A stretch of 64,000 nucleotides of DNA from Pseudomonadaceae bacterium (GTDB lineage Bacteria > Pseudomonadota > Alphaproteobacteria > UBA2136 > UBA6156): contig JACKLD010000013.1 in assembly GCA_024236095.1 (NCBI GenBank), forward strand, positions 142,368 to 206,367, read 5' to 3'. The notes below the pieces were generated by a model, which did not search any database, was not told where the DNA came from, and was given only the letters and a program-made list of their open reading frames with translations. Made by a program: the position numbers and the translations under genes. Below, one piece after another: positions 1-49,273 of this stretch. How positions within the stretch are numbered: the stretch's first letter is position 1; each line of letters opens with the position of its first letter.

Positions 1-2034
1 CACCGCCGCTTCGTGCTCGACCATTTCGGCCACCGTGGCGATGTTTTTCTGTTTGGCCAAATCGGCCATCGCCTTCACGAATCCTTGGTCTTCTTCGCTG
101 TTGTGCAGGTTGCGCACAAAACTTCCGTCAATCTTGATGTAATCCACCTCCAGCTGGCGGATGTAGGTCAGGCTGGAATAGCCCACCCCGCAGTCGTCCA
201 GCGCGAAACCGGCGCCAACCTGCTTCAGCTTGCCCATCACCTGCTTCACCAGTTGCAGGTCGCGCAGCAGGGCGGTTTCGGTGAGTTCCAGCACCAGCGT
301 GCCGCGTGGCAGCTTGGCGCCTTCCAGCAGGTAGGCAATCTCTTCGAACAGGCTTTCGTCCTCGAAGCTCTTGGCCGAAAGGTTGACGCTCAGTTTGATG
401 GGCCGTCCGACAGCATGATAGTGCTGCAAGGCCTTGACTGCCCGCGTCACCACCGCACGGTCCAGCTTGGTGATGAGGCCGAATTCCTCGGCCACGCTGA
501 TGAAGCGGATCGCCGGAATCAACGCGCCGGACTCATCCACCATGCGCACCAGCGCCTCGTAGTACTCGCCTTGCAGACGGCCGGAAATCGGCACGATGGG
601 CTGATAATGCAGTTGCAGGTAGTGCTCGGGGTCGTCCAGCGCCTTGCCCACCAGCGCCGCCCATTCCAGCTGGCCGCTCACGGCGCCGCTTGGGCGGGCT
701 TCCGGATTGTAGCGCTCCATGCGGTTGGGGCCGCGCTCCTTGGCCAGCATCAGTGCATCGCTGGCGCGGGCCAGAAGTTCGTCGGCGTCGTCGGCATCGG
801 TGGGGTACATCGCCGCGCCGCCGGAAACGGTGACCATCAACGGCCCGTTGCTGTGCTGGAACGGCCGCGCCGCCAGCGTGCCCTGAATGCGCTCCAGCCG
901 CGCCGCCAAATCGTCGGCGCGCAGGTCGCGCAGCAGCAGGGCGAACTGGTCGCCGTCCAGCCGCGCCACCGCATCGCCGGTGCGGATGCTGTCTTTCAAT
1001 ACCTGCGCCACATGGGCCAGCAGCTTGTCGCCCACCCCGTGGCCGTGGGTCTGGTTGGTGTAGGCGAAGTGGTCGAGGTCAAGCACTACCAGCGCGCCGC
1101 CGCGTTTCTCGCGCTTGGCACTGCGCAGCGTGCGCGCCAATTCGTCCATGAAGCGCGCGCGGTTGGTAATGCCGGTCAATGGGTCGTTGTTGGCCAAATA
1201 ATACAGCTGGTCGGTGCTGGCTTTTTGTGCCGAGATATCCCGTGCAATGCCCCTGAAACCCACCAGTCGCCCGGCGCCGTCGACCACCGGTACGCCCGAG
1301 ACGCTCCAGCAATAGCGGGTGCCGTGGCTGTCGCTGCTCCAGTAGTCGCGGTCATGAAAGGGGCTGGGCTGGGCCACCAGCGCGGCGAAATCATCCTCGA
1401 TCCGCAGCTTTTCCTCCGGCATGAAGCAGTCCACAAAACGGCTGCCTTTGCCTGCGCCCGCCAAGGGGCGCTTGCGGCTGCTGGAGAAGGTGAGGGTCAG
1501 GCTGCTGTCCACCTCCCACAGCCAGTCGGCAAATTGGTTGGCCATGTCGGTAAAGCGCTGCTGCGCCATGTCGTACATGCCTTGCAGGCGCATCATGCCG
1601 TGGCGCAGGGTTTGCGCGGCTTGCGCGGCATGGATCAGATCGTCCAGCAGGGCAGGGGTCAAGTCCGTATCGGGCCCGATGGCCAGCAGTCCTGCGTTGC
1701 GCGCCGCCTCGCGCACCTCGCGATTGTCGGAAAGCACCACCACCGCGCTGGCGTGGGCTTGCAAACTGCCCAGCCAGATCTCAACGTCATCGTTCATGTA
1801 GGGCAGGTGGGCCAGCACCAGTTCTGCCGCCAAACCGGGCTGTGGGTTGGTAAACAGTTGCGGCTGGCAGGTGGAATACGCCCCGCCGCCCACCTTGAGA
1901 AGTTGGTGCAACCGCGCCGCCCCCTCGTCGGAAGGAGAAAAAAGCACGCAAGAGGAGCCGTCCCCACCCATCCCTTGCTTATGGGGGGGCGTACTGTCGC
2001 TTCCTGACGCGGTGTTGTTGTTTTTGGGCGTCAT
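1..2034 (-). CDS. PAS-GGDEF-EAL c-di-GMP signalling protein, 3' end beyond window start; GGDEF motif degenerate (LDGDQF), EAL motif present (YEALVR)
   Basis: Minus-strand frame antisense to listed ORF 13..2007 translates as ...RYCWSVSGVPVVDGAGRLVGFRGIARDISAQK (PAS-like)...LANNDPLTGITNRARFMDEL...VARLDGDQFALLLRDL (GGDEF fold)...HYQPIVPISGRLQGEYYEALVRM...LVLELTETALLRD (EAL fold). The first in-frame ATG after the upstream stop (plus 2077-2079) is at 2034, with 1971 as an alternative. The ORF was not listed because it runs off the window edge. Confidence 0.8.
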   Translation of the reverse strand, partial: MTPKNNNTASGSDSTPPHKQGMGGDGSSCVLFSPSDEGAARLHQLLKVGGGAYSTCQPQLFTNPQPGLAAELVLAHLPYMNDDVEIWLGSLQAHASAVVVLSDNREVREAARNAGLLAIGPDTDLTPALLDDLIHAAQAAQTLRHGMMRLQGMYDMAQQRFTDMANQFADWLWEVDSSLTLTFSSSRKRPLAGAGKGSRFVDCFMPEEKLRIEDDFAALVAQPSPFHDRDYWSSDSHGTRYCWSVSGVPVVDGAGRLVGFRGIARDISAQKASTDQLYYLANNDPLTGITNRARFMDELARTLRSAKREKRGGALVVLDLDHFAYTNQTHGHGVGDKLLAHVAQVLKDSIRTGDAVARLDGDQFALLLRDLRADDLAARLERIQGTLAARPFQHSNGPLMVTVSGGAAMYPTDADDADELLARASDALMLAKERGPNRMERYNPEARPSGAVSGQLEWAALVGKALDDPEHYLQLHYQPIVPISGRLQGEYYEALVRMVDESGALIPAIRFISVAEEFGLITKLDRAVVTRAVKALQHYHAVGRPIKLSVNLSAKSFEDESLFEEIAYLLEGAKLPRGTLVLELTETALLRDLQLVKQVMGKLKQVGAGFALDDCGVGYSSLTYIRQLEVDYIKIDGSFVRNLHNSEEDQGFVKAMADLAKQKNIATVAEMVEHEAAV

Positions 2035-2190: not shown

Positions 2191-2919
2191 TCACTTCACC
2201 ACCACGTTCGGCCCCTTGGCGCGCGCGTCCGCCAGCTTTTGGTCAATCTGGTACAACATGCCGGCCATGTCGGCGGCGGCGGGGTCGCCGCTTTGCACCA
2301 GCGCGCCCAGCATGGTCATCTTCACCTCGCCGAAGCTGAGCTTGTAGCTTTTATCAATGCCCTTGCGGATACGCTCGCCCAGTACCAGCGCGCCCTTGAT
2401 GTCGGTTTCGGGCAGCACTGCCATGATGGTGCGCTCGCCGGTGCGGCCCGCGCTGTCGGAATCACGGATGGCGCGCTTCACCACGCGGGCGGCTTCGGCC
2501 ACCAGCAGGTCCATGTCTTCCTGCGCGAAATGTTTGATGTCCGGGTTGCTGGTAAAGGGGTCAAGCTCGATGGCCAGCACGGTAAACGGGTTATCGTAGC
2601 GTCCGGCGCGTTGCAGCTCTTTCTCCAGCAGGTGGAACAGGTAACGGCGGCTGAACAGCTGGCTCACCTCGTCGTACGCCATCATGTCGCGCAGGTATTT
2701 TACGGCACTTTCCAGCGCCTTGCCGCTGCGCTCCAGCGTGATGACCAGGTCGGTGATCTTGGCCATCTCCTCGCGGCTGATGGAGATGTTGCCGTTGGAA
2801 AGCGTGAGTCGTACCTTGTTGGTTTTCACCCGGTTGATAAAGGTTTCCGCTTCCTCCAGCGAGGCTTCGATGTCGCGGATGGTGCGGATGTCGTGCAAAA
2901 TGCCGGGGGCGTCTTTCAT
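2191..2919 (-). CDS. Degenerate GGDEF-domain protein (GGEEF replaced by TGERT), likely a c-di-GMP receptor/regulator rather than a cyclase
   Basis: ORF 2191..3120; the GGDEF fold is recognisable (YDEVSQLFSRRYLFHLLEKELQRAGRYDNPFTVLAIELDPF...AGRTGERTIMAVLPETDIKGALVLGERIRKGID) but the catalytic motif is not conserved. Start chosen at ATG 2919 (MKDAPGILHD); in-frame ATGs at 3000 and 3120 are alternatives. Confidence 0.7.
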   Translation of the reverse strand: MKDAPGILHDIRTIRDIEASLEEAETFINRVKTNKVRLTLSNGNISISREEMAKITDLVITLERSGKALESAVKYLRDMMAYDEVSQLFSRRYLFHLLEKELQRAGRYDNPFTVLAIELDPFTSNPDIKHFAQEDMDLLVAEAARVVKRAIRDSDSAGRTGERTIMAVLPETDIKGALVLGERIRKGIDKSYKLSFGEVKMTMLGALVQSGDPAAADMAGMLYQIDQKLADARAKGPNVVVK

Positions 2920-3071
2920 GGCAGCGGGCGGGCCTTTTTGGTGCGGTTTTGTTGTTGCGCGGGGCTTTTTTGTCAGTATGGCCACGCAAATTGGCCGCAT
3001 TGTGCTACCGTGCACGCGGGGTGGCAAGCCCCCTTTGCGATTTTTCACAATCTTTTCATTGTTTCGCAACT

Positions 3072-3088
3072 TGGCACAGAGCGTGCAT
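3072..3088 (+). promoter_or_regulatory. Sigma54-type -24/-12 promoter (TGGCAC-agagc-GTGCA) upstream of flgFG
   Basis: GG at 3073-3074 and GC at 3085-3086 are 12 nt apart, matching the TGGCAC-N5-TTGCW consensus; it lies about 65 nt upstream of the flgF GTG. Confidence 0.5.
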
Positions 3089-3153
3089 TGCCTGTGCCAC
3101 AAGGGCGGTGCCGTGGGCACAGGCGCCTACGGCAACAACTAAGGAGACACCCC

Positions 3154-3882
3154 GTGCAAGAGCTCGCCATCCTCGCGTCCCGTGCGATGACCACGATGCG
3201 CAAGTTCAACGCGGTGAGCGACAACATTGCCAACATCAACACCGACGGCTACCGCCGCAAGGATTACGAGTTCAAGGAGCTGGTCAGCCGCCCCGACGGC
3301 ATCAACCCCACCGCCAGCTACGTGGGCGACCGCGCCGTGATTATCGATTACAGCGACGGCGTGCTCACCGAAACCGGCAACCCGTTCAATGCCGCCATTG
3401 GCGGCGAGGGCTTCTTTGCGGTGGACGTCAACGGCACCACCCAATACACCCGCCGCGGACATTTCCTGATGGCCACCGACGGCACGCTGGTGACGCCGGA
3501 GGGCCACCCCGTGCTGGATAACTCCGGCGGGCAGATCCAGCTGCCGCCCGACACCACGCAGGTGATTATCGGCCGCGACGGCAGCATTGCCACCGAACAG
3601 GGGCAAATCGGCCGTCTCGGCGTGTTTGGCTTCAGCGATGAGGACAAGGGCTTGCTGCAACGGGCCGGAAATACAGGGTTCATTCCCACCCAGGGTGCCA
3701 GTGCCCAGCCGTTGGAAAACCCGGTGGTCTACCAAGGCAAAATCGAGGCCAGCAACGTGAGCCCCGTCATGGAAATGGTGACCATGCAAGACGTCGCCCG
3801 TTCTTACCAAAGCGCGGTGCGTGCCTTGCGCGGGCTGGAAGACACCGAACAACGCGCCATCCGTACCTTGGCACCCCAATAA
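3154..3882 (+). CDS. flgF: Flagellar basal-body rod protein FlgF
   Basis: C-terminal 243 codons of listed ORF 2047..3882. It has rod-protein N- and C-terminal motifs (SDNIANINTDGYRR...VSPVMEMVTMQDVARSYQS). RBS aaggaga at 3141-3147 precedes GTG 3154. The 5' part of the long ORF is antisense shadow of the GGDEF gene. Confidence 0.85.
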   Translation: MQELAILASRAMTTMRKFNAVSDNIANINTDGYRRKDYEFKELVSRPDGINPTASYVGDRAVIIDYSDGVLTETGNPFNAAIGGEGFFAVDVNGTTQYTRRGHFLMATDGTLVTPEGHPVLDNSGGQIQLPPDTTQVIIGRDGSIATEQGQIGRLGVFGFSDEDKGLLQRAGNTGFIPTQGASAQPLENPVVYQGKIEASNVSPVMEMVTMQDVARSYQSAVRALRGLEDTEQRAIRTLAPQ

Positions 3883-21859: not shown

Positions 21860-22744
21860 ATGTCCATTTTCATCACCGAAGACACCAAAGTCATCACCCA
21901 GGGCTTTACCGGCAAGCACGGGACGTTCCATAGCGAACAGGCACTGAAATACGGCAGCCGTTACGTGGGCGGCGTCACCCCTGGCAAGGGCGGAACCGAG
22001 CACCTCGGCTTGCCGGTGTTCGATACCGTGGCTGAAGCGGTGGCTGCCACCGGTGCCGAAGCCAGCGTCATTTACGTGCCGCCGCCGTTTGCCGCCGACG
22101 CCATTTTGGAGGCCGAAGCCGCCGGCATCAAAATCTGCGTGTGCATCACCGAGGGCATCCCCGTGCTGGATATGGTGAAGGTGAAGCGCAAGCTGATGGA
22201 CCCCAAATGCACCATGCGGCTGATCGGCCCCAACTGCCCCGGCATCATTACCCCCGGCGAGGGCAAAGGCTGCAAAATCGGCATCATGCCCGCTTACATC
22301 CACAAAAAGGGCAAGGTGGGTGTGGTCTCCAAGTCCGGCACGCTTACCTATGAGGCGGTCAAGCAAACCACCGATGTCGGCCTTGGCCAATCCACCTGCG
22401 TGGGTATCGGTGGCGATCCTGTCCCCGGCACCAACTTCATTCAGGTGCTGGCGGCGTTCGAGGCCGACCCGCAAACCGAAGGCATCGTGCTCATCGGCGA
22501 AATCGGCGGCATGGCGGAAATCGAAGCAGCCGAGTATATCAAAAACGCCGTTACCAAGCCGGTAGTGGCCTTTATCGCCGGAGCCAGCGCACCCAAGGGC
22601 AAACGCATGGGACACGCGGGCGCCATTATTTCCGGAGGCGACGACACCGCCGCCGCCAAAATCGATGCGCTGAAAAAGGCGGGCGCCACCGTGGTGGCCA
22701 GCCCCTCCGATCTCGGCGCCGCGATGAAGCAGTTGCTGGGGTAA
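21860..22744 (+). CDS. sucD: Succinyl-CoA synthetase alpha subunit
   Basis: 294 aa; CoA-binding and phosphohistidine loop ([10 protein letters not shown]). Confidence 0.95.
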
Positions 22745-22765
22745 GTCTTTTTACATAAGTGATGG

Positions 22766-22802
22766 GCGTGGCGTAAGGGGGTATGACCCCCTTACGCCAC
22801 GC
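22766..22802. terminator. Long perfect hairpin between convergent sucD and flgC (gcgtggcgtaagggggt atga acccccttacgccacgc)
   Basis: 17-bp perfect stem; no U-tract; likely a bidirectional terminator or REP-like element. Confidence 0.5.
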
Positions 22803-22863
22803 GCAATCCGGAGCCCATTTCTGGTGCCATATAAAGCCCTAAATCCATTTCTTCTTGAAGATG

Positions 22864-23277
22864 TTAGCGCAACATGTCCAGCGTCCGTGTCGCCATCTCC
22901 CGTGCGGTCACCAGCGCGGTCATGTTGGCTTCGTAGCTGCGCTGGGCTTCGCGCATGTTGATGTTCTCGGCCGTGCTGTCCACGTTGGGATACATCACGT
23001 AACCTTGCGCGTTGGCCAGCTTGTTGCCGGGTTGGTAAACGGGCTTCAAGGGCGATGTCATGTCTTTGCTAACGCCGCTCACCTGCACCTCGGTGGCGCC
23101 GGTGGCACGGTTGAGCACGCTTTGGAAGAATATCTGCTTGGCGCGGTAGGGCCCGCCCGCATCCTCGGCGCTTTCCACGCTGTCGGCGTTGGCGATGTTT
23201 TCGCTGGCCACGCGCATGCGCATGCTTTGCGCCGCCATACCGCCTGCCGAGATGTTCATGTTGGTGAGCAAATCCAT
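22864..23277 (-). CDS. flgC: Flagellar basal-body rod protein FlgC
   Basis: 137 aa; MDLLTNMNISAGGMAAQSMRMRVASENIANADS...YPNVDSTAENINMREAQRSYEAN. Confidence 0.92.
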   Translation of the reverse strand: MDLLTNMNISAGGMAAQSMRMRVASENIANADSVESAEDAGGPYRAKQIFFQSVLNRATGATEVQVSGVSKDMTSPLKPVYQPGNKLANAQGYVMYPNVDSTAENINMREAQRSYEANMTALVTAREMATRTLDMLR

Positions 23278-23301: not shown

Positions 23302-23694
23302 TTATTGTTGCCGTCCGATGGCCAGGCGCTGCATGGAAGCCTGTTTGGCGTAAAGCTGGGTCATGTAGCGGTAGTCAATTTGGGTCTGGTTCATTTTCAC
23401 CAGTTCGTTGTCCAGCCGCACGGCATTGCCGTTGTGCTGGATGTAGCTGGCACTTTCCATCAAACGGTTGCTTGCGCCACTGGCGCCACCCGCCATGTGC
23501 TTGGGGTTGGTCAGACGCACGCCCATGTCGCTTTGGGCGCGTTCCAAGTAGGGAGCAAAAGCCAGCTCGCGGGGCTTGTATTCCGGCGTGTCGGCGTTGG
23601 CGATGTTGCCGGCAATCACCCCCTGCCGGTCGGTCAGGTAGTTCATGCGGGCGCTCAGCGCCGCGTGGATGGAAGGCTGGGCCGTGGTCGGCAT
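23302..23694 (-). CDS. flgB: Flagellar basal-body rod protein FlgB
   Basis: MPTTAQPSIHAALSARMNYLTDRQGVIAGNIANADTPEYKPRE...; RBS aagagga; start at 23694 inside listed ORF 23302..23922. Confidence 0.9.
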   Translation of the reverse strand: MPTTAQPSIHAALSARMNYLTDRQGVIAGNIANADTPEYKPRELAFAPYLERAQSDMGVRLTNPKHMAGGASGASNRLMESASYIQHNGNAVRLDNELVKMNQTQIDYRYMTQLYAKQASMQRLAIGRQQ

Positions 23695-23730
23695 GGCGGT
23701 TCCTCTTTCTTGTTCTCTCCGTGTTCCCAT

Positions 23731-23748
23731 ATGCAGGCAGCGTGCCAA
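23731..23748 (-). promoter_or_regulatory. Sigma54 -24/-12 promoter for flgBC (minus-strand reading TTGGCACgctgcCTGCAT)
   Basis: Reverse complement of 23731-23748 matches TGGCAC-N5-TTGCA; -12 lies about 38 nt upstream of the flgB ATG. Confidence 0.6.
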
Positions 23749-23767
23749 CTTTGAGAGGTTGGGCATC

Positions 23768-23785
23768 TTGGCACGCTCCCTGCAT
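23768..23785 (+). promoter_or_regulatory. Sigma54 -24/-12 promoter for flgI-flgJ-flgN-like (TTGGCACgctccCTGCAT)
   Basis: Matches TGGCAC-N5-TTGCA; mirror image of the minus-strand element 20 bp away; -12 about 30 nt upstream of the flgI RBS. Confidence 0.6.
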
Positions 23786-23812
23786 TTGCTTACCCGAACA
23801 AGGAAGACGCGT

Positions 23813-24937: not shown

Positions 24938-25296
24938 TGGCCGCCATATCCGCCCCCGTCATCAACCCCGCGCTGGCCGCCGCCGTGCCGCAGGCCACCA
25001 AGGACAAGCTGCAAGGCAAGGCCCGCGAGTTCGAGGCGTATTTCATTCAGCAGTTCATCAGCCTCACCCGTCCCGATATGTCGGATAACGAGGTGTTCGG
25101 CGGCGGTTTTTCCGAGCAGGTGTACGGCACCATGATGGACGAGCAGATGGCCACCGGCATCGCCAACCGTGGCGGCTTTGGCATCGCCAACCGCGTCTAT
25201 GCCGAGATGCTGCAGGCGCAGGCGGCCACGCTGCCTCCTGCTGCCGCCGTGGCACAAAATTATACCCCGCAACCCCAACAAGGAGCCCGCCCATGA
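24937..25296 (+). CDS. flgJ: Flagellar rod-binding protein FlgJ (N-terminal rod-binding domain only, no muramidase)
   Basis: 119 aa; EFEAYFIQQFISLTRPD...GGGFSEQVYGTMMDEQMATGIANRGGFGIANRVYAEML; start overlaps the flgI stop (TAATG). Confidence 0.8.
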   Translation: MAAISAPVINPALAAAVPQATKDKLQGKAREFEAYFIQQFISLTRPDMSDNEVFGGGFSEQVYGTMMDEQMATGIANRGGFGIANRVYAEMLQAQAATLPPAAAVAQNYTPQPQQGARP

Positions 25297-25742
25297 GCCA
25301 TACCCCCCAACCCGGCATCATTATCCAAATGATGGAAGCGCGCCAAGCCTGCCGCGACTTGATGGGCCTGATGGTCGAAGAAAACAACGGCCTTACCCGC
25401 AACAGCACCCACGAGGTGGAAACCCGCCTGCAACTGAAAAAGCGCCTGGCCCTGCGGTTGGAAAAACTGCTGGCCGATATCAAGAGCCAACGGGCCGACT
25501 TCCGTGGCAACCGGGAGGTGGAAAACCTTGCCGTGCGGCTGGCTGAAGAGATTGCGGTGTTTCAGGATATCGCCGCCAAAAACGAGCTGATGCTGCGCGC
25601 CGCCCACCGTTTGCGTGCCGACGTGGTGGCGGTGATCCGCGATACCATCGAGGCCAGCCAACCCCGCGTGCAAACCTACAACGCCCACGGCGCCAGCACG
25701 GTGGGAACCGCCGGCACCACGGTGGTGGCGACAACGGTGTGA
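25293..25742 (+). CDS. Flagellar-cluster protein, FlgN-like helical chaperone candidate
   Basis: 149 aa; start overlaps the flgJ stop (ATGA); coiled-coil-rich helical sequence; assignment by context only. Confidence 0.5.
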   Translation: MSHTPQPGIIIQMMEARQACRDLMGLMVEENNGLTRNSTHEVETRLQLKKRLALRLEKLLADIKSQRADFRGNREVENLAVRLAEEIAVFQDIAAKNELMLRAAHRLRADVVAVIRDTIEASQPRVQTYNAHGASTVGTAGTTVVATTV

Positions 25743-25788: not shown

Positions 25789-25851
25789 TGCTTTCCCACA
25801 AAGACAAAAACAAAGGGAGTCAAGCCCCCTTTGCGCACAACCATACCGCCA

Positions 25852-26316
25852 TCAAATCTTATGCTGGGTCGTATAATCCTTGTTGGAGAGAATATACTGT
25901 ACGCCGGTGCGCTTGGAGCTGTCGATGAGGATCGGCGCCTTCAGGTTGGCGGTCAGGTAGTAGCTGTCGCCGTTGTCGTACAGGGTGAGGATGCTCAACA
26001 GCTGGGTGTCATCCTTGGGGAAGTTGGTTTCGATCATCGCCTCGCTGCTGTCGGCTTCGGCAATCTTCAGGCCCAGAATGTTCGGGTCGGCCACCAAAAA
26101 GGCCACTTCCGGCGCATTGACGCATTGCATCAGCAAAATCGGGCTTTCATCCACGTTGGGCAGGCGGGTCAGGCCAAACTGCGTGCACTCACGGAAGCCG
26201 AACAGCCCTTGCGGGAAGTCGATCAGGCGATCCTTGCGCAACGAAACCTCGCCGAAGCGGGTTTGGAAGGTCAGCTCTTCGCCCGCATCGCTGGTCATCA
26301 CTTGGGGGTTATTCAT
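25852..26316 (-). CDS. fliW: Flagellar assembly factor FliW
   Basis: ELTFQTRFGEVSLRKDRLIDFPQGLFGFRECTQFGL...FLVADPN is the FliW family pattern; start chosen at ATG 26316, overlapping the csrA stop by 8 bp. Confidence 0.8.
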   Translation of the reverse strand: MNNPQVMTSDAGEELTFQTRFGEVSLRKDRLIDFPQGLFGFRECTQFGLTRLPNVDESPILLMQCVNAPEVAFLVADPNILGLKIAEADSSEAMIETNFPKDDTQLLSILTLYDNGDSYYLTANLKAPILIDSSKRTGVQYILSNKDYTTQHKI

Positions 26317-26617
26317 CGTCGTCGCTCCCGTGGTTATGGTGGTTGTTGTGCTCATCGCGCCCGTCTCCGTTGGTTGTTGTTAAGGTGGAAGAGGTTGGCA
26401 AACGCCGCAAAACATCGCCCAAGGGGGCGCCGCTGCCAAGGGCGGCGGCTTTGTTCTCGGCCTGGATTTTGGTAAACAGCTCTTCGCGGTAGACGGTGTT
26501 TCCTTGCGGAAACTCGAAGCCCAGCTTCACCCGTCCGCCACGGATATCCACCACCTTCACGGTGATATCGCCATTGATGACAATGGCTTCGCCGGGGCGT
26601 CGGGTTATCAGCAGCAT
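26309..26617 (-). CDS. csrA: Carbon storage regulator CsrA with His/Asp-rich C-terminal tail
   Basis: MLLITRRPGEAIVINGDITVKVVDIRGGRVKLGFEFPQGNTVYREEL is the CsrA fold; the extra about 45 aa ends ...GRDEHNNHHNHGSDDDE. Confidence 0.85.
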   Translation of the reverse strand: MLLITRRPGEAIVINGDITVKVVDIRGGRVKLGFEFPQGNTVYREELFTKIQAENKAAALGSGAPLGDVLRRLPTSSTLTTTNGDGRDEHNNHHNHGSDDDE

Positions 26618-26675
26618 AAACGGGTCTCTTGGCTTCGGTAGGGTTGATGATAAGGGTCTGGCTCATGTTATACGC

Positions 26676-27587
26676 TTACCTCAAATAATCAAGCAGGCTG
26701 AGTTGGTTGACGCGGGTGATAATCAACATGCTTGCCTCCATGGTGGCCTGTTGCTGGCTGAAGCGGGTCAACGCTTCGGCCACGTCGACCTTTTCCAGTC
26801 CGTCAAGCTGTTCGCCCAGAAATTGCTTTTGCGCATCGTGGCGGGTGTTGATCTGCTCCAGCGTGTTGATCTGCCCGCCGATGCGTCCTTGCACCACCGC
26901 AAGGTTCTGGCGGGCGCTGTCGAGCGCCGCCACCGCGCTGTCGATATCGGACAGCGAGTTGTTCTGCATGCCGTACCACAAGGCTTCCAATCCGGCTTTC
27001 AGCTCCATGAAGGCTTGCTCGTTGCCCGCCACCCCGTACTGCAGGCTGCTGCCCGGGCCGGTAGAGACGGTGGGGGGCGTCGCATCACCGTTGTACCACG
27101 TGCTGGCCAGCGGCAGGCCGGGGAAGGCGGTGGCGGTGGGCGCGCCGCTCACCGGCTCGTCATCGCCATCTTGGCCGGAGAAGATGTAACTGCCTTCAAA
27201 CTTGGTCTTGAACAGGTTGTAAAAGGTATCGGCAATGGCCTGCACCTTGGGGGCGAGGCTTTGGCGGGTGCTGGCGCTGTTTTCGTTGCGGCCCAAGGTG
27301 GCCACGCTGGCGGCTTCCGAAAGCAGGTCGACCATGCCCGCCAAGGCGTTCTCGGCCGAGTTGAGGCGGTTGGTGGCGGTGGTGATGTTGCTTTGGTACA
27401 CGTCGGTGCGGGCCAGCACGTCGCGCAACGACACAATCTGGTTGCTGCTCTCTGCGGTATCGGCCAAGCGGCGGCCGGTGTTGCCGGAGGTGACCTGATA
27501 GCTGGTCAGGGCCAAGCCCTCGTTGGCGGTTTGCAGGTTCCGCAGGTTGGTTTGGTTTTGGAAATAGGTGGCGATACGTGTAACCAT
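26676..27587 (-). CDS. flgL: Flagellar hook-associated protein 3 FlgL
   Basis: 303 aa; flagellin-like N- and C-terminal helices (...QQATMEASMLIITRVNQLSLLDYLR). Confidence 0.88.
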   Translation of the reverse strand: MVTRIATYFQNQTNLRNLQTANEGLALTSYQVTSGNTGRRLADTAESSNQIVSLRDVLARTDVYQSNITTATNRLNSAENALAGMVDLLSEAASVATLGRNENSASTRQSLAPKVQAIADTFYNLFKTKFEGSYIFSGQDGDDEPVSGAPTATAFPGLPLASTWYNGDATPPTVSTGPGSSLQYGVAGNEQAFMELKAGLEALWYGMQNNSLSDIDSAVAALDSARQNLAVVQGRIGGQINTLEQINTRHDAQKQFLGEQLDGLEKVDVAEALTRFSQQQATMEASMLIITRVNQLSLLDYLR

Positions 27588-27592
27588 GGTGC

Positions 27593-29410
27593 TTACCTCA
27601 CAATGCCTAACAGGGTGTCGAACAGGTCGTTGACGACGGTGACGATGCGTGCGCTGGCCTGAAAGCTGTTTTGGTACACTAGCATGGTGGCCAGTTCTTC
27701 ATTCACGTTGACGCCGGACAGGCTGCTTTGCAGCTCGGCAATCTGGGTATCGATGGTTTCGGCGAAGGCTTCGCGGCTGTTGGCGTCTTTGATGGTCACC
27801 GCCAGTGTGGAGACGATGCGCCCCACATAGCCCGCGCTGTTGACGTTCTGCGCGCTCAAATCACCGGCGGCACCGAAGCTGAGAACCGTATCGGCCAACT
27901 GGCTGAGCGCCAGCATGTTGGCGTTGCTGCGCGAGGAAAGTCCGCCGTCTTCGGCGCGCATCCGACCCACGGCCACCAAATCGGGGTTGGTGGCGATGTC
28001 GCTGCGCACGGCGATGTCGTTGCTGTCGGCGCCGGTGAAGAAGTTGTTCATCCCCAACAGCCCCAGTGCGTTGCCGCTGACGTTGGACAGCACCACGTAC
28101 TGTCCGGCCGTTTGGGTTTGCAGGCGTATGATCGGGTCGCCGTTGCTGTCGGTGGTGGCGGTGGCGGTAATACCCAGCGTGCCGCCCAGCGTGGTGTTGC
28201 CCACGTCGGCGTTGCCGTTGATGAGGGTGGCCAAATCGTCCAGCGAGAACGGCCCCACGCCGGGGATGGCAATGGCGCCGCCGTTGCCCAGCGTGGTGGC
28301 GATGACATCACCCTGGCTGTTGACCACGCTGGCATGGAAGGTGGCGCCCGCAAGGCTGGCGGAAAGCTCGGTGAACAGGTCGGTGGCGGTGGTGGTGACG
28401 CCGCTGGTGCTGCCGCTTTGCAGCGTGGCCACTGGCGGGATGGCGCTGCCTTGGCTGTGCAGGCTGTTGAAGGCGGTCATGAAGGTGGAGGTAAACTCGT
28501 TCAGCTCGGCCAACAGGTTGGGGATGGTCGTGTCGCGCACGTCGATCAGGGCCTTGATGCGGCCGGTGCTCATGCTGTTGGTGTAAAGCGGCGTGGTGTT
28601 GGGGTCGAGACTGCCGTCTACCTTCACGTTTTGCACGACAATGTCGCCAAAAGGCCCGCTGCCGCCCACCCGCTTCAGCTGCACGTAGGTGCCTTCGTCC
28701 ACCAGCTTGCGGCCGTTTTCGGTGAGGATGCGCAGGCTGCCGTTCTGCGAGGTGGAGACCTGCAAGCCGAAACGCTTGGCCAGCTCGTCCACCTGGATGG
28801 CGCGGGCGTCCTTCAAATCGTTGGTATTGGCACCGTTGGCGGTATTGGCGTCTTGCGTGGCAATCTCCACGTTCAGGTCGTAAACCCGCTTCAGGATGGT
28901 ATTGATGCTGGTCAGCTCGGCGGTAATTTGGTCGTCGATGCGCTGCTGCACGTCATCCATGTCTTGGCTGATGCCGCGGATGGTGTCGCTCAGCAGCACC
29001 GCGCTTTGCACCGCGTTGCGGCGCAGGGCGCCGTCGGCGGGGCTGTTGGCCAGCTGGCTGGTGGCGGCGAAAAAGCCGTTGACCAGGTCTTCAAGGTTGC
29101 CGTCGGCGCTGGCGTTGCTGAAACTCCCCTCGATGTTATCAAGGAAGCTGCGGGTGGTGGTGGCGTAATCGAGGTCGGAGGCCGAGGTAAGCCCGCGCGC
29201 GGTGATGAAATTGTCGGTAATGCGCTGGATGGTGCCCAACTGTACCCCCGCGCCGAAGCCGTTGTAGGCCACCGCACTGTTTTGCGCCACTTGGCGCGTA
29301 AAGCCCTGCGTGTTGGCGTTTACGATGTTGTGGCTGATGGTGCCGATGCCGACCTGACTGTTCTGCAACCCGCCGGTGGCAATGCGAAGGGCGTTGGAAA
29401 GCGTGCTCAT
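27593..29410 (-). CDS. flgK: Flagellar hook-associated protein 1 FlgK
   Basis: MSTLSNALRIATGGLQNSQVGIGTISHNIVNANTQGF...; start at ATG 29410 inside listed ORF 27593..29470; no obvious Shine-Dalgarno sequence. Confidence 0.9.
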   Translation of the reverse strand: MSTLSNALRIATGGLQNSQVGIGTISHNIVNANTQGFTRQVAQNSAVAYNGFGAGVQLGTIQRITDNFITARGLTSASDLDYATTTRSFLDNIEGSFSNASADGNLEDLVNGFFAATSQLANSPADGALRRNAVQSAVLLSDTIRGISQDMDDVQQRIDDQITAELTSINTILKRVYDLNVEIATQDANTANGANTNDLKDARAIQVDELAKRFGLQVSTSQNGSLRILTENGRKLVDEGTYVQLKRVGGSGPFGDIVVQNVKVDGSLDPNTTPLYTNSMSTGRIKALIDVRDTTIPNLLAELNEFTSTFMTAFNSLHSQGSAIPPVATLQSGSTSGVTTTATDLFTELSASLAGATFHASVVNSQGDVIATTLGNGGAIAIPGVGPFSLDDLATLINGNADVGNTTLGGTLGITATATTDSNGDPIIRLQTQTAGQYVVLSNVSGNALGLLGMNNFFTGADSNDIAVRSDIATNPDLVAVGRMRAEDGGLSSRSNANMLALSQLADTVLSFGAAGDLSAQNVNSAGYVGRIVSTLAVTIKDANSREAFAETIDTQIAELQSSLSGVNVNEELATMLVYQNSFQASARIVTVVNDLFDTLLGIVR

Positions 29411-29420
29411 GGCCGGTGGT

Positions 29421-29437
29421 ATGCATAAGACGTGCCA
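29421..29437 (-). promoter_or_regulatory. Candidate sigma54 -24/-12 element for flgKL-csrA-fliW (minus reading TGGCACgtcttATGCAT)
   Basis: GG/GC spacing is 12 nt; the -12 sits only about 12 nt from the chosen flgK ATG, implying a leaderless transcript if real. Confidence 0.35.
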
Positions 29438-29470: not shown

Positions 29471-29627
29471 CCAAACCCGCCCGAAGCCCCCTGAGGAGGG
29501 GGGTGCAAGGGGGAGGAGGTTTCCTCCTCCCCCTTGCCATCAAGAGTGAGGTTGGCCCGCAGGGCCAAGTTGCCGAGCCCGTAGGGCTTTAGGCAACGGG
29601 GAAAGCGCCTGCCCAACCCCCACCGCC
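29471..29627. repeat. About 157-bp intergenic repeat, copy 1, containing a 15-bp-stem GC hairpin (gcaagggggaggagg ttt cctcctcccccttgc) and a second hairpin (ttggccc gca gggccaa)
   Basis: Near-identical copy at 61960-62116 and a 5' fragment at 63410-63452; listed ORFs 29540..29878(-) and 62029..62409(-) share an identical C-terminus because of it. Confidence 0.85.
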
Positions 29628-44925: not shown

Positions 44926-45706
44926 AAAGTGCCAGTTCCACTTCAATCGGAATATGGTCGGACGGCTGCTCCTTGCCGCGTTCGTCACGGTAATGCGTCA
45001 CGTTTGCCACCTTGGCTTTCAGCGCATCGCTCACAAAGAGGTAGTCGATCCGCATGCCGCGATTGTTCACAAAGGCGTAGCTGCGGTAATCCCACCAGCT
45101 GAACAGCCCGGCTTCGTCGGTGGTCAGTCGCAGGGCATCATGCAAGTGGTCTCCCGCAAAGGTTTGCAGCCAACCGCGCTCGGCGGAGGTGAACATGCAC
45201 TCCTTGCTGCGCTTGGCGGGGTTGTCCACATCGCGTTCATCGGCCGAGATGTTGAAATCACCGCCGACCACCAGCTGCGGAAACGCCGCCACTTCCCGTG
45301 CCGCCCAAGCGGTGAGGTGGGCGTAGAATTCCTCTTTGAACACGAATTTGGGGCTTTGCGTGCTCTCGCCGTTGGGGACATAGGCGCTGGCCACGCGGAG
45401 GTTGCCCTTGGGGTGTGCCACAGTGGCGGCGATCAGCCGCGCATGGTCGGCAAACACGTCGCCGTGAAAGCCTTGCTCTACATCGCCTAACGGGTGGCGG
45501 CTGACAATGGCGACGCCGTTGTAGCTCTTTTGGCCATGGATGGCCACGTGCAACCCGCGTTCCTCAAATGGTGCGCGCGGGAACATCTCGTCGGCCACCT
45601 TGGTTTCCTGCAACAGCAGCACGTCGGGCTGGTGGGCATCCCACCACGCCAGCACATGCCCCATGCGGGTGCGCAACGAGTTGACGTTCCAGCTGGCAAT
45701 CTTCAT
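44924..45706 (-). CDS. xthA: Exodeoxyribonuclease III
   Basis: MKIASWNVNSLRTR...LQETK...DFN...SDHIPIEVEL; start at 45706 inside listed ORF 44924..45766. Confidence 0.9.
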   Translation of the reverse strand: MKIASWNVNSLRTRMGHVLAWWDAHQPDVLLLQETKVADEMFPRAPFEERGLHVAIHGQKSYNGVAIVSRHPLGDVEQGFHGDVFADHARLIAATVAHPKGNLRVASAYVPNGESTQSPKFVFKEEFYAHLTAWAAREVAAFPQLVVGGDFNISADERDVDNPAKRSKECMFTSAERGWLQTFAGDHLHDALRLTTDEAGLFSWWDYRSYAFVNNRGMRIDYLFVSDALKAKVANVTHYRDERGKEQPSDHIPIEVELAL

Positions 45707-45823
45707 GGCACCAATGTACGACAACCGCCGCGCTTTTGCCACGCTGCCTGCCTGCCAGCTGGCCAATGGGCTGGCGGTGGCGGCGTCTTTCGGCTAACGT
45801 GCGGCAAAACAAGGAAAACCCTG

Positions 45824-47959
45824 GTGGCAAAACCCGTTGCCAAGCTGATGCAAACCTACACCGCGTGGTTGCGCAACATGGCGCAGTACGGCGCTGCCGT
45901 GGCGCGGGGGCTTATTTTGCTGGGTATCTGGGGTTTGGCGCTGTTCGGTTGGAGCACCCTGGGCGAAGATGCCCTGCGCCGCCGTTTGCCGCCGGTGCAT
46001 GCCGCCGCCCAATCCTATGCCGAGGCTGTTGGCACATACTTGCAAGGGTTGGCAGCCACCCTGCAACCTTTGGCCGAAGATCCGCGCTTGGTACAGGGCG
46101 TGGCCTCCGATGACGGCATCACCTCGCTGGAAGTACGCCGGGCCATGTACGAGTTCGGATATCTCAATCGCCTCAACCAGCTTTATATCTGGGAGGAGCA
46201 AAGCGGCACGGTCGGCCAATTGGCCGGCAGCCGTGAATTGCCGTCCGAGGTGGCGGTTTGGTTGGGTAAACTGGATGAGCAGCCGGTGGCCCTTGCCGTC
46301 TTTGATATTTCCACCCGCCCCCAACTGTATTTGGCGATGCATGCCGCCGATTCTGCCACGCATGTCTATGTGGTGATGCCTGCCAGTTGGCAGGGCTTGC
46401 TGCTGGGCCAGCCTCGTGCGCCGGTGCTTGGTGGCTTTGGCAAGGCGGAAACCTTCATGCTGGTATCGCAAAACGGCAGGCTCTGGCAGGCACCGAGGCT
46501 TAGTCGCGAGCGCCCGCGCCTGATGACCGAGTTGGATGCGGTTGCCGCGTCCACGGTTGCCAAGGCGCCAAACGGCGACATTATCGTTGCCGCGCCGGTG
46601 CCGGGCGTGGCGGGCTGGGGGGTGGCCTATCGGCTGCCGCCTTCGGTCGCCTTGGGCGCCAGCCGCATGGCGCAATGGGGGGTTATCCTTGCCGCGTTGT
46701 TGGCCAGTATCGCCGTCTTGTGGAAACCCACCCGCCCCGCCCGCCGCAAGGTGGCGGCCAAACTGGCGCCGCTGGCGGGAGTCATTACCCCGCTGACCAC
46801 CCCGCTCATCAGCAGTGTGGCGGCGGTGATGAAGGGCGAGCGCCAGCCGCCCGCGCAGGCGCAAGCCATCATCCAACCCGGCCAGTTCAAGCAGGAAGAG
46901 CTGGCGGGCGGCCAGCCCCAACGGCGCGGCAAGGCCATGCAGTTCGGCAGCAATCCGCCTCGCCCGGCGGCCAAGGTGATGACCGCCCCCAGCAACTACA
47001 TGCCCACTGAGGCCGCCGCAGCATCGTCATCCGCCGCCGGTCGCCCCAAAAAAGCCCCGGTGCTCACCGATGCCATGGCCCGCTTGGTGGATGAATGTCT
47101 CACCCAAGGGCGCTCGCAGTTGCTGTATCAACCCATTTATCAGGTCAGCACCGGCAAACCGGCGTTCCATGAGGTGTTGCTGCGTCTTATCGACCGCGAC
47201 GGTAATCCGGTCAGTCCCGGCGCGTTTTTGCCGGTATGCGAGCAGCACGGCTGGCTCGACAGGCTCGATAGCCATGTGCTTGACCGCGTGCTGGAGCTAA
47301 ACTTTGCCGGTGGTTTGCATCCGGCCACGCCGCTGACCCTCAATCTGGCCGGTGCCAGCATGGACAGCCTCGACTACCTGCAAAAATTGCTGACGCTGGA
47401 TGATGCCGAGGTCATCAAGCATCTGGTGCTGGAAGTCAGCTCGCAGGAATTGCTGAAAGACCCCACGGCCATCGACTTCCTGCGCGAGGTGCACGAGGCC
47501 GGTGCCAAACTCAGCGTGGATTATTTCGGCGGCGGCCCCACCATGTTGCAGGCCAGCCAGAAGATGGGCTTCGACATGCTCAAAATGGACTGTGCCCGGA
47601 TGGGCGGCGATACCGCCGCCAAGCGCGAGGTGCTGATGTTGGCGCAAGCCGCCAAACGCACCGATGTGGCACTGGTGCTGGAAAAAGTGGAAACGGTGGA
47701 GATGGAGGTCTTCGCCCGCCGCGCCGGGGTGAAGTTCCTGCAAGGCTACCTGCTGGGCAAGCCCAAGCCGGATTTGGTCTCGGCCACGCTTCCCGGCTGG
47801 AGCGAAATGGCGCGCATGGAAAAAGAGCAGGTGTCTTCTGAAGATGAAGCTGCCCAAGAGCCGGAAGCCGCGCCGGAGGGGGTGGCCGACGACGCCGCTA
47901 CTGAAGCTGGCGATACAAATGCACCGCCACCTGCTCTCCCAGACTCATCTTCAAAATAA
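45824..47959 (+). CDS. Membrane sensor EAL-domain c-di-GMP phosphodiesterase (two TM segments flanking a periplasmic domain; EVL variant of EAL)
   Basis: TM1 GLILLGIWGLALFGW, TM2 GVILAALLASIAVLW; EAL fold LLYQPIYQVSTGKPAFHEVLLRL...VDYFGGGPT...; GTG 45824 after aaggaaaa (alternative ATG 45848). Confidence 0.85.
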   Translation: MAKPVAKLMQTYTAWLRNMAQYGAAVARGLILLGIWGLALFGWSTLGEDALRRRLPPVHAAAQSYAEAVGTYLQGLAATLQPLAEDPRLVQGVASDDGITSLEVRRAMYEFGYLNRLNQLYIWEEQSGTVGQLAGSRELPSEVAVWLGKLDEQPVALAVFDISTRPQLYLAMHAADSATHVYVVMPASWQGLLLGQPRAPVLGGFGKAETFMLVSQNGRLWQAPRLSRERPRLMTELDAVAASTVAKAPNGDIIVAAPVPGVAGWGVAYRLPPSVALGASRMAQWGVILAALLASIAVLWKPTRPARRKVAAKLAPLAGVITPLTTPLISSVAAVMKGERQPPAQAQAIIQPGQFKQEELAGGQPQRRGKAMQFGSNPPRPAAKVMTAPSNYMPTEAAAASSSAAGRPKKAPVLTDAMARLVDECLTQGRSQLLYQPIYQVSTGKPAFHEVLLRLIDRDGNPVSPGAFLPVCEQHGWLDRLDSHVLDRVLELNFAGGLHPATPLTLNLAGASMDSLDYLQKLLTLDDAEVIKHLVLEVSSQELLKDPTAIDFLREVHEAGAKLSVDYFGGGPTMLQASQKMGFDMLKMDCARMGGDTAAKREVLMLAQAAKRTDVALVLEKVETVEMEVFARRAGVKFLQGYLLGKPKPDLVSATLPGWSEMARMEKEQVSSEDEAAQEPEAAPEGVADDAATEAGDTNAPPPALPDSSSK

Positions 47960-48335
47960 CCGAGTCGAATTCGTCTTTTAAAAGCTCGCGGGCCACATGG
48001 CCGAAAAGGGCGGTAAATTCACGTTGTACCGCCCGCAGGTTGCGTTGGCGGCCGGCCGGCGAGGTGTTGGCTTGCGGCGGCTGTGCCAGTGCCAGCACCA
48101 CCCGGGGCGGGGAGGCAAACAGGGAAGGGGCGGTGGCTTCAAGCGGCAGGGACACGGCCTCTGGTGGGGAAGAAGCGTTGGCCAACAACGGTTGCCATGC
48201 CCACAATGTCAGCGCCCACAGGCCCGCCGTCAGCGCCAGCGTCAGCGGAGCAGGCACCTGCGCGGGCTTTACGCGCCCATGCAGCAGCGTCTCGCGGCTG
48301 GGCAATTCCACGGCGGTAACTGATGCAGGCGTCAT
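47898..48335 (-). CDS. Hypothetical membrane protein (about 145 aa) overlapping the 3' end of the EAL gene antisense
   Basis: ORF with one hydrophobic segment (LTLALTAGLWALTLWAW); a 62-bp convergent overlap makes it doubtful. Confidence 0.3.
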   Translation of the reverse strand: MTPASVTAVELPSRETLLHGRVKPAQVPAPLTLALTAGLWALTLWAWQPLLANASSPPEAVSLPLEATAPSLFASPPRVVLALAQPPQANTSPAGRQRNLRAVQREFTALFGHVARELLKDEFDSVILKMSLGEQVAVHLYRQLQ

Positions 48336-48403
48336 CGCCGATTTATGGCACAAGGGCCAAAACCCTGCTGACATTCGGTCCGCAAACGTATACCCTAAAG
48401 CCC

Positions 48404-49273
48404 ATGACCCGTAGCGCCATGCCCGCCGAGACAACCCCCGACATGCAAGAACTGGCACAGCGCAGCACGGTGGATTTGCGCTTGGTCAACGCCATGGCGG
48501 GGGAGCGCGAAATGAACGCCCGCGAGCAGCAGATGGTCGATAAACTCAAGTCCGAGCGCGGCGAAGGGCTGTTCTCCGACATGCTCTACACGCTGACCCG
48601 CCGCAATTTCCCCAGCCGTCAGGCCAAAACCCTGTGGGCGGATATCACCGGCCACCGTGTCAACCTGAAAAAGCTGCTGGGCCGCGACCCCGGCCTGTCG
48701 TTGGCGGCGCACGACTACCTCACCAATGTGTCGGGCCTGATGCGCAACGTCGGCATGATCGAGGAAGGCAAATTCAACCTGCTGGCCACCGTGGCGGTGC
48801 ACGACGGCCTGACCGGCCTGTACGATAAAACCACCTTCGCCCAAATGTTGAAAGACGAGCTGGAACGCGCCCTGCGTTATGGCCGTCCGCTGACGCTCAT
48901 CATGGCCGACATCGACCACTTCAAGCACCTCAACGACACTTACGGCCATGCCGATGGCGACGTGGTGCTGGCGCAGGTGGCCGACATCATCCGCAAACAT
49001 TGCCGCAGCACCGATGTGGCGGGCCGCTTCGGCGGTGAGGAGTTCGCCGTGTTGCTGCCGGAATCCACGCCGGAAACCGGCCGCATTTTTGCCGAGCGCG
49101 TGCGCGTCTCGGTGGAAAGCCACTTCGCCGATACCCCCTACAAAACCACCCTTAGCCTCGGCGTGGCGGGGGCGCAAACCGGCGACGATGCCACCACCCT
49201 CACCAAACGCGCCGACGCTGCGCTGTATGAGGCAAAAAATGGTGGGCGCAACCGTGTTTGTGGCGGTGCGTGA
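48404..49273 (+). CDS. Diguanylate cyclase (intact GGEEF)
   Basis: LTGLYDKTTFAQMLKDELERA...DIDHFKHLNDTYGHADGDVVL...RFGGEEFAVLLPES; ATG 48404 inside listed ORF 48323..49273. Confidence 0.88.
   Translation: MTRSAMPAETTPDMQELAQRSTVDLRLVNAMAGEREMNAREQQMVDKLKSERGEGLFSDMLYTLTRRNFPSRQAKTLWADITGHRVNLKKLLGRDPGLSLAAHDYLTNVSGLMRNVGMIEEGKFNLLATVAVHDGLTGLYDKTTFAQMLKDELERALRYGRPLTLIMADIDHFKHLNDTYGHADGDVVLAQVADIIRKHCRSTDVAGRFGGEEFAVLLPESTPETGRIFAERVRVSVESHFADTPYKTTLSLGVAGAQTGDDATTLTKRADAALYEAKNGGRNRVCGGA

Follow-up and report, generated by a model that had tools for sequence, protein, structure and literature searches.

A stretch of 64,000 nucleotides of contig JACKLD010000013.1 (hereafter the window) was analysed around the 118-bp region that separates the divergent flagellar genes flgB and flgI. 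This region carries a near-perfect inverted repeat which, judged from its sequence and that of related genomes, is very probably a pair of independent sigma-54 promoters standing back to back, one for flgBC and the other for the flgI operon. Every sequence-level test applied for the sigma-54 promoter class gave a positive result.

Sigma-54 matches and their placement

The arms at 23731-23748 (atgcaggcagcgtgccaa) and 23768-23785 (ttggcacgctccctgcat) are reverse complements of each other except for one base, as the original prediction had described, and a repeat search lengthens them to 21 nt (23728-23748 and 23768-23788; 90% complementary, 19-nt centre). Read outward, both arms give T-TGGCAC-N5-CTGCA-T, i.e. 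GG-N10-GC, so that the GG and GC doublets are exactly 10 nt apart in both TGGCACGCTCCCTGCA (PflgI) and TGGCACGCTGCCTGCA (PflgB). The outward reading had also been predicted, and the two arms are the sole exact matches to the pattern TGGCACNNNNNYTGCW (TGGCAC-N5-YTGCW) in the whole window (2 found, 0.30 expected). Barrios et al. 1999 reportedly gave the extended sigma-54 consensus as YTGGCACG-N4-TTGCW. Both arms follow it (T-TGGCAC-G-N4-CTGCA-T), save that a C replaces the T ahead of TGC. A stricter search with TTGGCAC-N6-TGCAT returned four matches in the window (at 3071, 23731, 23768 and 29421) where 0.01 were expected, and all four sit directly upstream of flagellar operons. The outer two correspond to further sites that had been proposed before flgF and flgK; the coordinates given for these (flgF site end 3088, flgK site start 29421) each take in one flanking T, which is trivial, and the sites themselves stand. 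The elements are listed below.

23728..23788, no strand: inverted repeat, 21-nt arms (23728-23748 and 23768-23788) around a 19-nt centre
23732..23747, minus strand: PflgB core TGGCACGCTGCCTGCA, GG at 23746-23745, GC at 23734-23733; exact consensus, 24.5 bits
23769..23784, plus strand: PflgI core TGGCACGCTCCCTGCA, GG at 23770-23771, GC at 23782-23783; exact consensus, 23.6 bits
29422..29437, minus strand: PflgK core TGGCACGTCTTATGCA; top matrix score of the window, 26.2 bits
3072..3087, plus strand: PflgF core TGGCACAGAGCGTGCA, ending 66 nt ahead of the GTG start codon of flgF (3154); 23.2 bits

Scoring used a position weight matrix whose 50 training sites all came from other genomes. The four highest scores in the window belong to flgK (26.2), flgB (24.5), flgI (23.6) and flgF (23.2 bits), and the next (14.2 bits) lies within the noise; in 100 first-order Markov simulations, which served as the null, the mean maximum was 15.5 bits and the highest 22.4 bits. 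A promoter scan with an RpoN matrix had been suggested together with the original prediction, and its top four are exactly the sites named there. The remaining question of chance in GC-rich DNA was raised by the loose pattern, which is unenriched when one mismatch is allowed (12 in the window, 9.9 expected); therefore, the signal lies in the quality and placement of the matches and not in their counts. Exact matches and matrix scores are nevertheless far above the null and stand solely before flagellar operons, and the same positions are conserved in about 25 genomes, with negative controls (see below). Chance has thus already been refuted as an explanation, and we assign it next to no probability.

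The placement of the sites also agrees with promoters. From the end of the core to the start codon the distance is 37 nt for flgB, 28 nt for flgI, 66 nt for flgF and 11 nt for flgK, all on the correct strands, and the flgB and flgI sites end 17-27 nt ahead of a Shine-Dalgarno sequence plus ATG. Gene calls and distances therefore bear out the predicted positions before flgB (minus) and flgI (plus). With the C of the GC doublet taken as -12, transcription from PflgB is predicted to start at about 23720-23721 (leader of ~26 nt, Shine-Dalgarno AGAGGAA) and from PflgI at about 23795-23797 (leader of ~17 nt, Shine-Dalgarno AAGGAAG). PflgB would thus start near 23721 on the minus strand and drive flgB-flgC, and PflgI would start near 23796 and drive flgI, a flgJ-like gene and an open reading frame (ORF) of 149 aa. 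At each promoter the GG and GC doublets would be bound by sigma-54 RNA polymerase as a closed complex, whose opening would require an AAA+ enhancer-binding protein. No sigma-70-like site was found in the flgB-flgI intergenic region, and an Rfam scan of the window gave no match.

Two minor features were seen at the predicted 5′ ends. A motif GAGAGA(G), at 23714-23720 (minus strand) in the window, begins 11-13 nt past TGCA and sits at the predicted 5′ end of most leadered flgB and flgI transcripts of the window and its relatives, where C is strongly depleted. The motif could be either a preference of the initially transcribed sequence or a 5′-end element. Moreover, the Shine-Dalgarno regions resemble CsrA sites (ACA-GGA), both at flgI (GAACAAGGAAGA) and at flgB or flgI of several relatives (ACAAGGAG); in the window they lie at 23796-23806 and 23698-23712. 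A csrA-fliW pair is present in the same flagellar cluster, and the likeness could reflect Shine-Dalgarno composition alone.

A palindrome was also observed at PflgF (TGGCACAGAGCGTGCATTGCCTGTGCCA, 3072-3099), comprising a second sigma-54-like match on the minus strand, face to face with the first; a third copy of GGCACAG is found at 3116-3122. The minus-strand match (3099-3084) was rejected as a promoter, scoring 9.3 bits and being absent from the three loci that have an orthologous PflgF (L164, L165 and L166). The palindrome is probably incidental, or a piece of a hairpin in the flgF 5′ untranslated region.

Conservation in related genomes

The comparison set consisted of 80 genomic loci around FlgI relatives, plus extra loci from exact-protein look-ups. 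All close relatives are uncultured Alphaproteobacteria. FlgI and FlgF of the window are 100% identical to proteins of a metagenome-assembled genome that NCBI labels ‘Pseudomonadaceae bacterium’. This label is probably wrong, because mdh-sucCD, petABC, the FliX of relatives and all nearest homologues indicate an uncultured lineage of Alphaproteobacteria; relatives also carry labels such as ‘Pseudomonas fluorescens’ and ‘Blastochloris viridis’.

The divergent arrangement flgC-flgB / flgI-flgJ-orf149 (orf149 being the 149-aa ORF) is kept in relatives with 59-90% FlgI identity, and both outward sites are present in 17 of the 18 relatives that have flgB and flgI as divergent neighbours. A closer look at the relatives’ sites reveals conservation of GG, GC, the T before TGGCAC, the G or A after it and the T after TGCA, with the N5 spacer left free. 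Conserved doublets and a free spacer are the pattern expected of sigma-54 elements. The flank preferences in the 50 relatives’ sites, T(0), G/A(7) and T(17), fall at positions that were unused in choosing those sites. Upstream of flgI, a site of 18-28 bits was found in all 24 loci whose FlgI is at least 56% identical (L001-L024). Among 55 more distant loci, which include Acidobacteria, Calditrichia, Bdellovibrionales and Caulobacterales, only L026 has a flgI site (18.1 bits), and the other 54 score at most 10.1 bits. These distant loci are a natural negative control for the flgI site. The core of the original prediction, namely outward RpoN -24/-12 promoters for flgB and flgI with more before flgF and flgK, is thus strongly supported by the relatives.

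The two single sites are conserved as well. PflgK is present in 20 relatives, and the orthologous site of PflgF in L164, L165 and L166 scores 23-27 bits, with weaker matches in distant loci. In a metagenome scan with FlgG, which covered mostly distant loci, a consensus-like site before flgF was found only in L084, L085 and L096; three others (L091-L093) have TGGCAC-N5-TTGTT before flgF, without the GC doublet. PflgB, PflgI, PflgF and PflgK would together make up a sigma-54 regulon of rod, ring and hook-associated genes, like class III of Caulobacter.

For flgK, the relatives also bear on the position of the transcript end. The ATG (29410) lies 11 nt past TGCA, and this distance is 10-12 nt in the window and 13 close relatives. 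In Campylobacter jejuni, differential RNA-seq (dRNA-seq) placed transcription starts 8-13 nt from the motif of sigma-54 promoters (PMC3847290), and the 10-12 nt seen here agree with that distance. Since the spacing from TGCA to ATG is constant across genomes, transcription of flgK probably starts at the ATG itself, and the mRNA is predicted to be leaderless. In more distant relatives (L016-L024) the flgK leader measures 41-58 nt and includes a Shine-Dalgarno sequence. The segments in question are 29408-29437 (minus strand) of the window, 3426-3454 of L163, which at ~78% nucleotide identity is the closest relative, and the start regions of flgK in L001-L015. Likewise, flgI appears leaderless in L002, L004, L010, L011 and L015 (TGCA-N11-ATGAGAGCA).

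Gene order has changed around some of these sites. The block flgK-flgL-csrA-fliW (25852-29396) is inverted in the window relative to L163 and all other relatives, in which it comes after orf149 in the same orientation. In this inversion the flgK site travelled with its gene, and no flanking inverted repeats were found that would explain it. At the right-hand inversion junction, ~70 nt upstream of PflgK, there is a hairpin with a perfect stem of 15 bp and a loop of 3 nt (GCAAGGGGGAGGAGG aaa CCTCCTCCCCCTTGC, 29505-29537); L163 has a different, terminator-like hairpin directly ahead of its PflgK. Downstream of flgC, relatives carry fliE (83-394 in L163), which is absent from the window (22745-22863), where sucD converges on flgC. 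In L166 (7751-10566), fliQ-fliR-fliX-flhB come after fliE, placing export-apparatus genes and fliX seemingly behind the sigma-54 promoter PflgB. Such a circuit, with fliX behind PflgB, would be odd unless internal promoters exist. Finally, three relatives have an extra sigma-54 site (25-26 bits) after flgG and before a small ORF (L164 4883, L165 11827 and L166 2947, all on the plus strand). The small ORF is followed by flgA-flgH in L165 and L166; the contig of L164 stops past the small ORFs. In the window, flgG is followed by ychF without an extra sigma-54 site.

Mirror symmetry and activation

The distance between the two promoters varies widely across the clade. The gap from TGGCAC to TGGCAC is 21 nt in the window, 30 in L163 and 12 in L004; among other relatives it is 25-42 nt in eight genomes, 63-96 nt in five, and 437 and 999 nt in two. 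The values below 63 nt are 12, 21, 25, 29, 30 and 39-42 nt. Of the five spacer positions of the arms, 4/5 are symmetrical in the window and 0/5 in L163, and the average over 17 relatives is 1.12/5. The near-perfect symmetry is peculiar to the window genome and is roughly of the degree that chance would produce in one of some 20 genomes.

These values bear directly on a functional role of the mirror geometry. The original prediction suggested that the layout could let one enhancer-binding protein serve both operons. On this account, a single oligomer of the protein, bound at or near the dyad or acting by looping, would activate both promoters, and their spacing and symmetry would be selected. 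PflgB and PflgI do fall into one predicted regulon and are neighbours in nearly all relatives, and divergent sigma-54 flagellar promoters with enhancers on the opposite side or downstream, within the neighbouring unit, are known from Caulobacter crescentus (flaN/flbG) and Rhodobacter sphaeroides (flhAp-flgAp). The gaps also cluster loosely around multiples of 10.5 bp. However, helical phasing of the gap is not significant (Rayleigh p = 0.085 over genomes that are non-independent, p = 0.18 on unique values), the gap ranges from 12 to 999 bp, and the spacer symmetry found in the window alone falls to 1.12/5 in relatives. The test for a conserved spacing or phasing, as expected of a geometry-dependent pair with a shared enhancer, accordingly failed. 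Palindromes and shared k-mers around the pair never rose above controls. Gapped palindromes (half-site 5-6 nt, gap 0-12) were no commoner in 16 orthologous regions than in coding controls, and k-mers common to the flgF, flgB/flgI and flgK neighbourhoods exceeded a weak null only marginally in the window, an excess explained by homologous rod-protein N-termini (such as NIAN) and other coding sequence. We therefore consider a functional mirror geometry improbable, and this part of the original prediction finds no support. One candidate activator site, TTGCCGGCAA (23605-23614), was rejected because this stretch codes for the I-A-G-N motif in FlgB.

As members of one regulon, PflgB and PflgI very probably share their activator, but no observation suggests the symmetry as the cause. 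The inverted repeat arises because two near-consensus elements of 16-18 nt face away from each other, and its symmetry would be an incidental by-product of the two promoters, itself unselected.

A further reading of the repeat is that it is no promoter pair at all, being instead an operator bound by a regulator dimer, or an element that forms a cruciform or hairpin. Its 21-nt arms are 90% complementary, and the segment 23728-23788 folds as single-stranded DNA at -18.9 kcal/mol (z = -4.3), as any inverted repeat would. Among relatives, however, the distance between the half-sites ranges from 12 to 999 bp, a drift that neither a dimeric operator nor a hairpin would tolerate, and the conserved positions are exactly GG-N10-GC with the known sigma-54 flanks. 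The same element stands singly before flgK and flgF. Moreover, both predicted transcripts start downstream of the repeat, and neither mRNA would contain it. Taken together, an operator or structural element is very improbable.

If the arms are two sigma-54 promoters, their spacing leaves little room. The -34 edges of the closed complexes would overlap by ~6 bp in the window, and by more in L004; in most clade genomes the two promoters are 12-96 bp apart with no conserved upstream DNA. Complexes this close might compete, or fire from one activator ring. Because the promoters are tightly spaced without conserved upstream DNA, activation without a conventional upstream enhancer may be proposed, from intragenic sites or without DNA binding (as by FlgR of Helicobacter). 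Coupled to the leaderless flgK and some flgI, this would form a compact class III switch. We regard this as a rather improbable extension of the two-promoter reading.

Several results weigh against an assignment of these sites to sigma-54. Neither the 64-kb window nor the fetched loci contain rpoN. A sigma-54 activator (GAFTGA, PF00158) was likewise not found in the window ORFs scanned or in the fetched loci; the search comprised Pfam on 41 window ORFs and a six-frame search for GAFTGA, ESELFG and the RpoN box in the window and 162 loci. No enhancer-like motif was detected in or around the promoters by crude palindrome and k-mer searches, no scan directed at ftr or IHF sites having been made. 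The -12 element reads CTGCA where the consensus has TTGCA, a variation that is common among the relatives’ sites. In addition, the training sites of the matrix were chosen by a GG/GC filter, and the information at these doublets is partly selection; the flanking positions were unselected. Enhancer sites within coding sequence could hide behind protein-level conservation. The six-frame search gave a single match, inside FlgK of L012, which was false.

The identity of the activator may be indicated by FliX, the partner of the sigma-54 activator FlbD (PMC3096577). FliX is encoded in the L166 string flgB-flgC-fliE-fliQ-fliR-fliX-flhB (PF10768, 31.9 bits against a cut-off of 25), and 49 FliX homologues were found in the clade; tblastn gave no FliX match in the window. 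By analogy with Caulobacter, an activator of the FlbD type acting under FliX is most likely.

Comparable systems and flagellar genes of the window

The predicted scheme appears closest to class III/IV of Caulobacter, with looser likeness to Rhodobacter fla1, to Vibrio and Pseudomonas and to the epsilonproteobacteria, all of which have small operons behind -24/-12 promoters. In Caulobacter, the flgI-cheL-flbY operon contains a rod-binding (CheL-like) gene and a small gene of unknown function, resembling the flgI operon of the window. Caulobacter flgBC-fliE is class II; in the window, flgBC stands behind a sigma-54 site. C. crescentus is also an alphaproteobacterium with sigma-54 -24/-12 elements before rod, ring and hook-associated genes (PMC3096577, PMC3930126). 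It shares divergent sigma-54 flagellar units (flaN(flgK)/flbG(flgE)), and FliX homologues occur in the present clade. Mullin & Newton 1993 and Gober & Shapiro 1992, both cited in PMC3096577, speak in their titles of ftr2 and ftr3 and of a ‘3′ enhancer’ for flaN/flbG. Unlike the Caulobacter system (sigma-54 with FlbD/FliX, ftr enhancers and IHF), the promoters of the window are 21 bp apart without intervening enhancer DNA, and flgK is predicted to be leaderless.

In R. sphaeroides, flhAp and flgAp are said by Pena-Sanchez et al. 2009 to be ~53 bp apart, with enhancers downstream. This alphaproteobacterium resembles the present case in having closely spaced divergent sigma-54 flagellar promoters in its fla1 system (RpoN with FleQ/FleT; PMC6180460, PMC7277832), although other genes flank the pair, and its fla1 genes were horizontally acquired (PMC6180460). 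Helicobacter and Campylobacter have sigma-54 promoters before rod and hook genes and csrA-fliW in the flagellar cluster. FlgR of Helicobacter pylori and C. jejuni activates without a DNA site (PMC3930126), and such an activator would, by analogy, suit promoters that have no room for an upstream enhancer. However, these organisms belong to another phylum-level lineage, and FliX, being present in the clade, argues for an activator of the FlbD type. In the four-tier hierarchies of Vibrio and Pseudomonas (FlrA/FleQ, FlrC/FleR, RpoN), the flgB, flgF and flgK operons are RpoN-dependent (PMC3930126). Those operons are long (flgBCDE, flgFGHIJKL), in contrast to the small units of the window with one site each.

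Thus, a well-supported, if predicted, sigma-54 flagellar regulon is added for an uncultured alphaproteobacterial clade. It would comprise flgBC, flgI-J-orf149, flgKL-csrA-fliW and flgFG, and in relatives also orf-flgA-flgH, and it suggests that Caulobacter class III-like control, with FliX present, reaches past the cultured groups. Flagellar control of this sort is ordinary and would not surprise a specialist; the close packing of the promoters and the predicted lack of a leader in the flgK mRNA are minor curiosities that introduce no new principle. The exact promoter coordinates sharpen the operon annotation. For genome scans, the case also urges caution, as a striking palindrome may be the trivial outcome of two divergent consensus promoters.

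The genes belonging to these operons, and the features next to them, are as follows.

3154-3882, plus strand: flgF, 242 aa, Pfam match; 100% identical to P0121
3919-4701, plus strand: flgG, Pfam match
ends at 22744, plus strand: sucD, converging on flgC
22864..23277, minus strand: flgC, rod protein, 137 aa; PF06429, PF00460
23302..23694, minus strand: flgB, proximal rod protein, 130 aa; TIGR01396 at 79.8 bits (cut-off 59), PF00460
23813..24937, plus strand: flgI, P-ring protein, 374 aa; PF02119 (E = 6.5e-132), 100% identical to P0001
24937..25296, plus strand: rod-binding protein like the N-terminal part of FlgJ, 119 aa; PF10135, and NF009431 at E = 1e-11, under the model cut-off
25293..25742, plus strand: conserved ORF of 149 aa that closes the flgI operon; relatives have it at the same place
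25810..25834, minus strand: terminator-like hairpin where the flgI and flgK operons converge; stem of 10 bp, then a run of T
25852..29410, minus strand: flgK-flgL-csrA-fliW operon, by Pfam matches
25852-26355, minus strand: fliW, Pfam match
26309-26617, minus strand: csrA, Pfam match
26676-27587, minus strand: flgL, Pfam match
27593-29410, minus strand: flgK, Pfam match
1-2034, minus strand: GGDEF-EAL protein, Pfam/NCBIfam match
2191-2919, minus strand: GGDEF protein, Pfam/NCBIfam match

The 130-aa gene call for flgB recurs on Logan contigs, and the flgBC operon stops at flgC because sucD converges on it at 22744. The 149-aa ORF (25293-25742) had no Pfam or NCBIfam match. It closes the flgI operon across the clade, just before flgK, and could be an FlbY- or FlgN-like chaperone. 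Outside the flagellar genes, the window also encodes mdh, sucCD, petABC, rpoD, dnaG, greA and ribosomal proteins.

Several genes for cyclic di-GMP (c-di-GMP) proteins were also observed. Divergently to flgF, a GGDEF gene of 242 aa (2191-2919) is found in the window and also in L164-L166. The GGDEF-EAL gene (1-2034) lies next to it in the window, L164 and L165, and L166 ends at the GGDEF gene. The GGDEF genes beside flgF suggest a link between c-di-GMP and motility. More GGDEF/EAL genes are found at 45494-47959 and 48323-49273.

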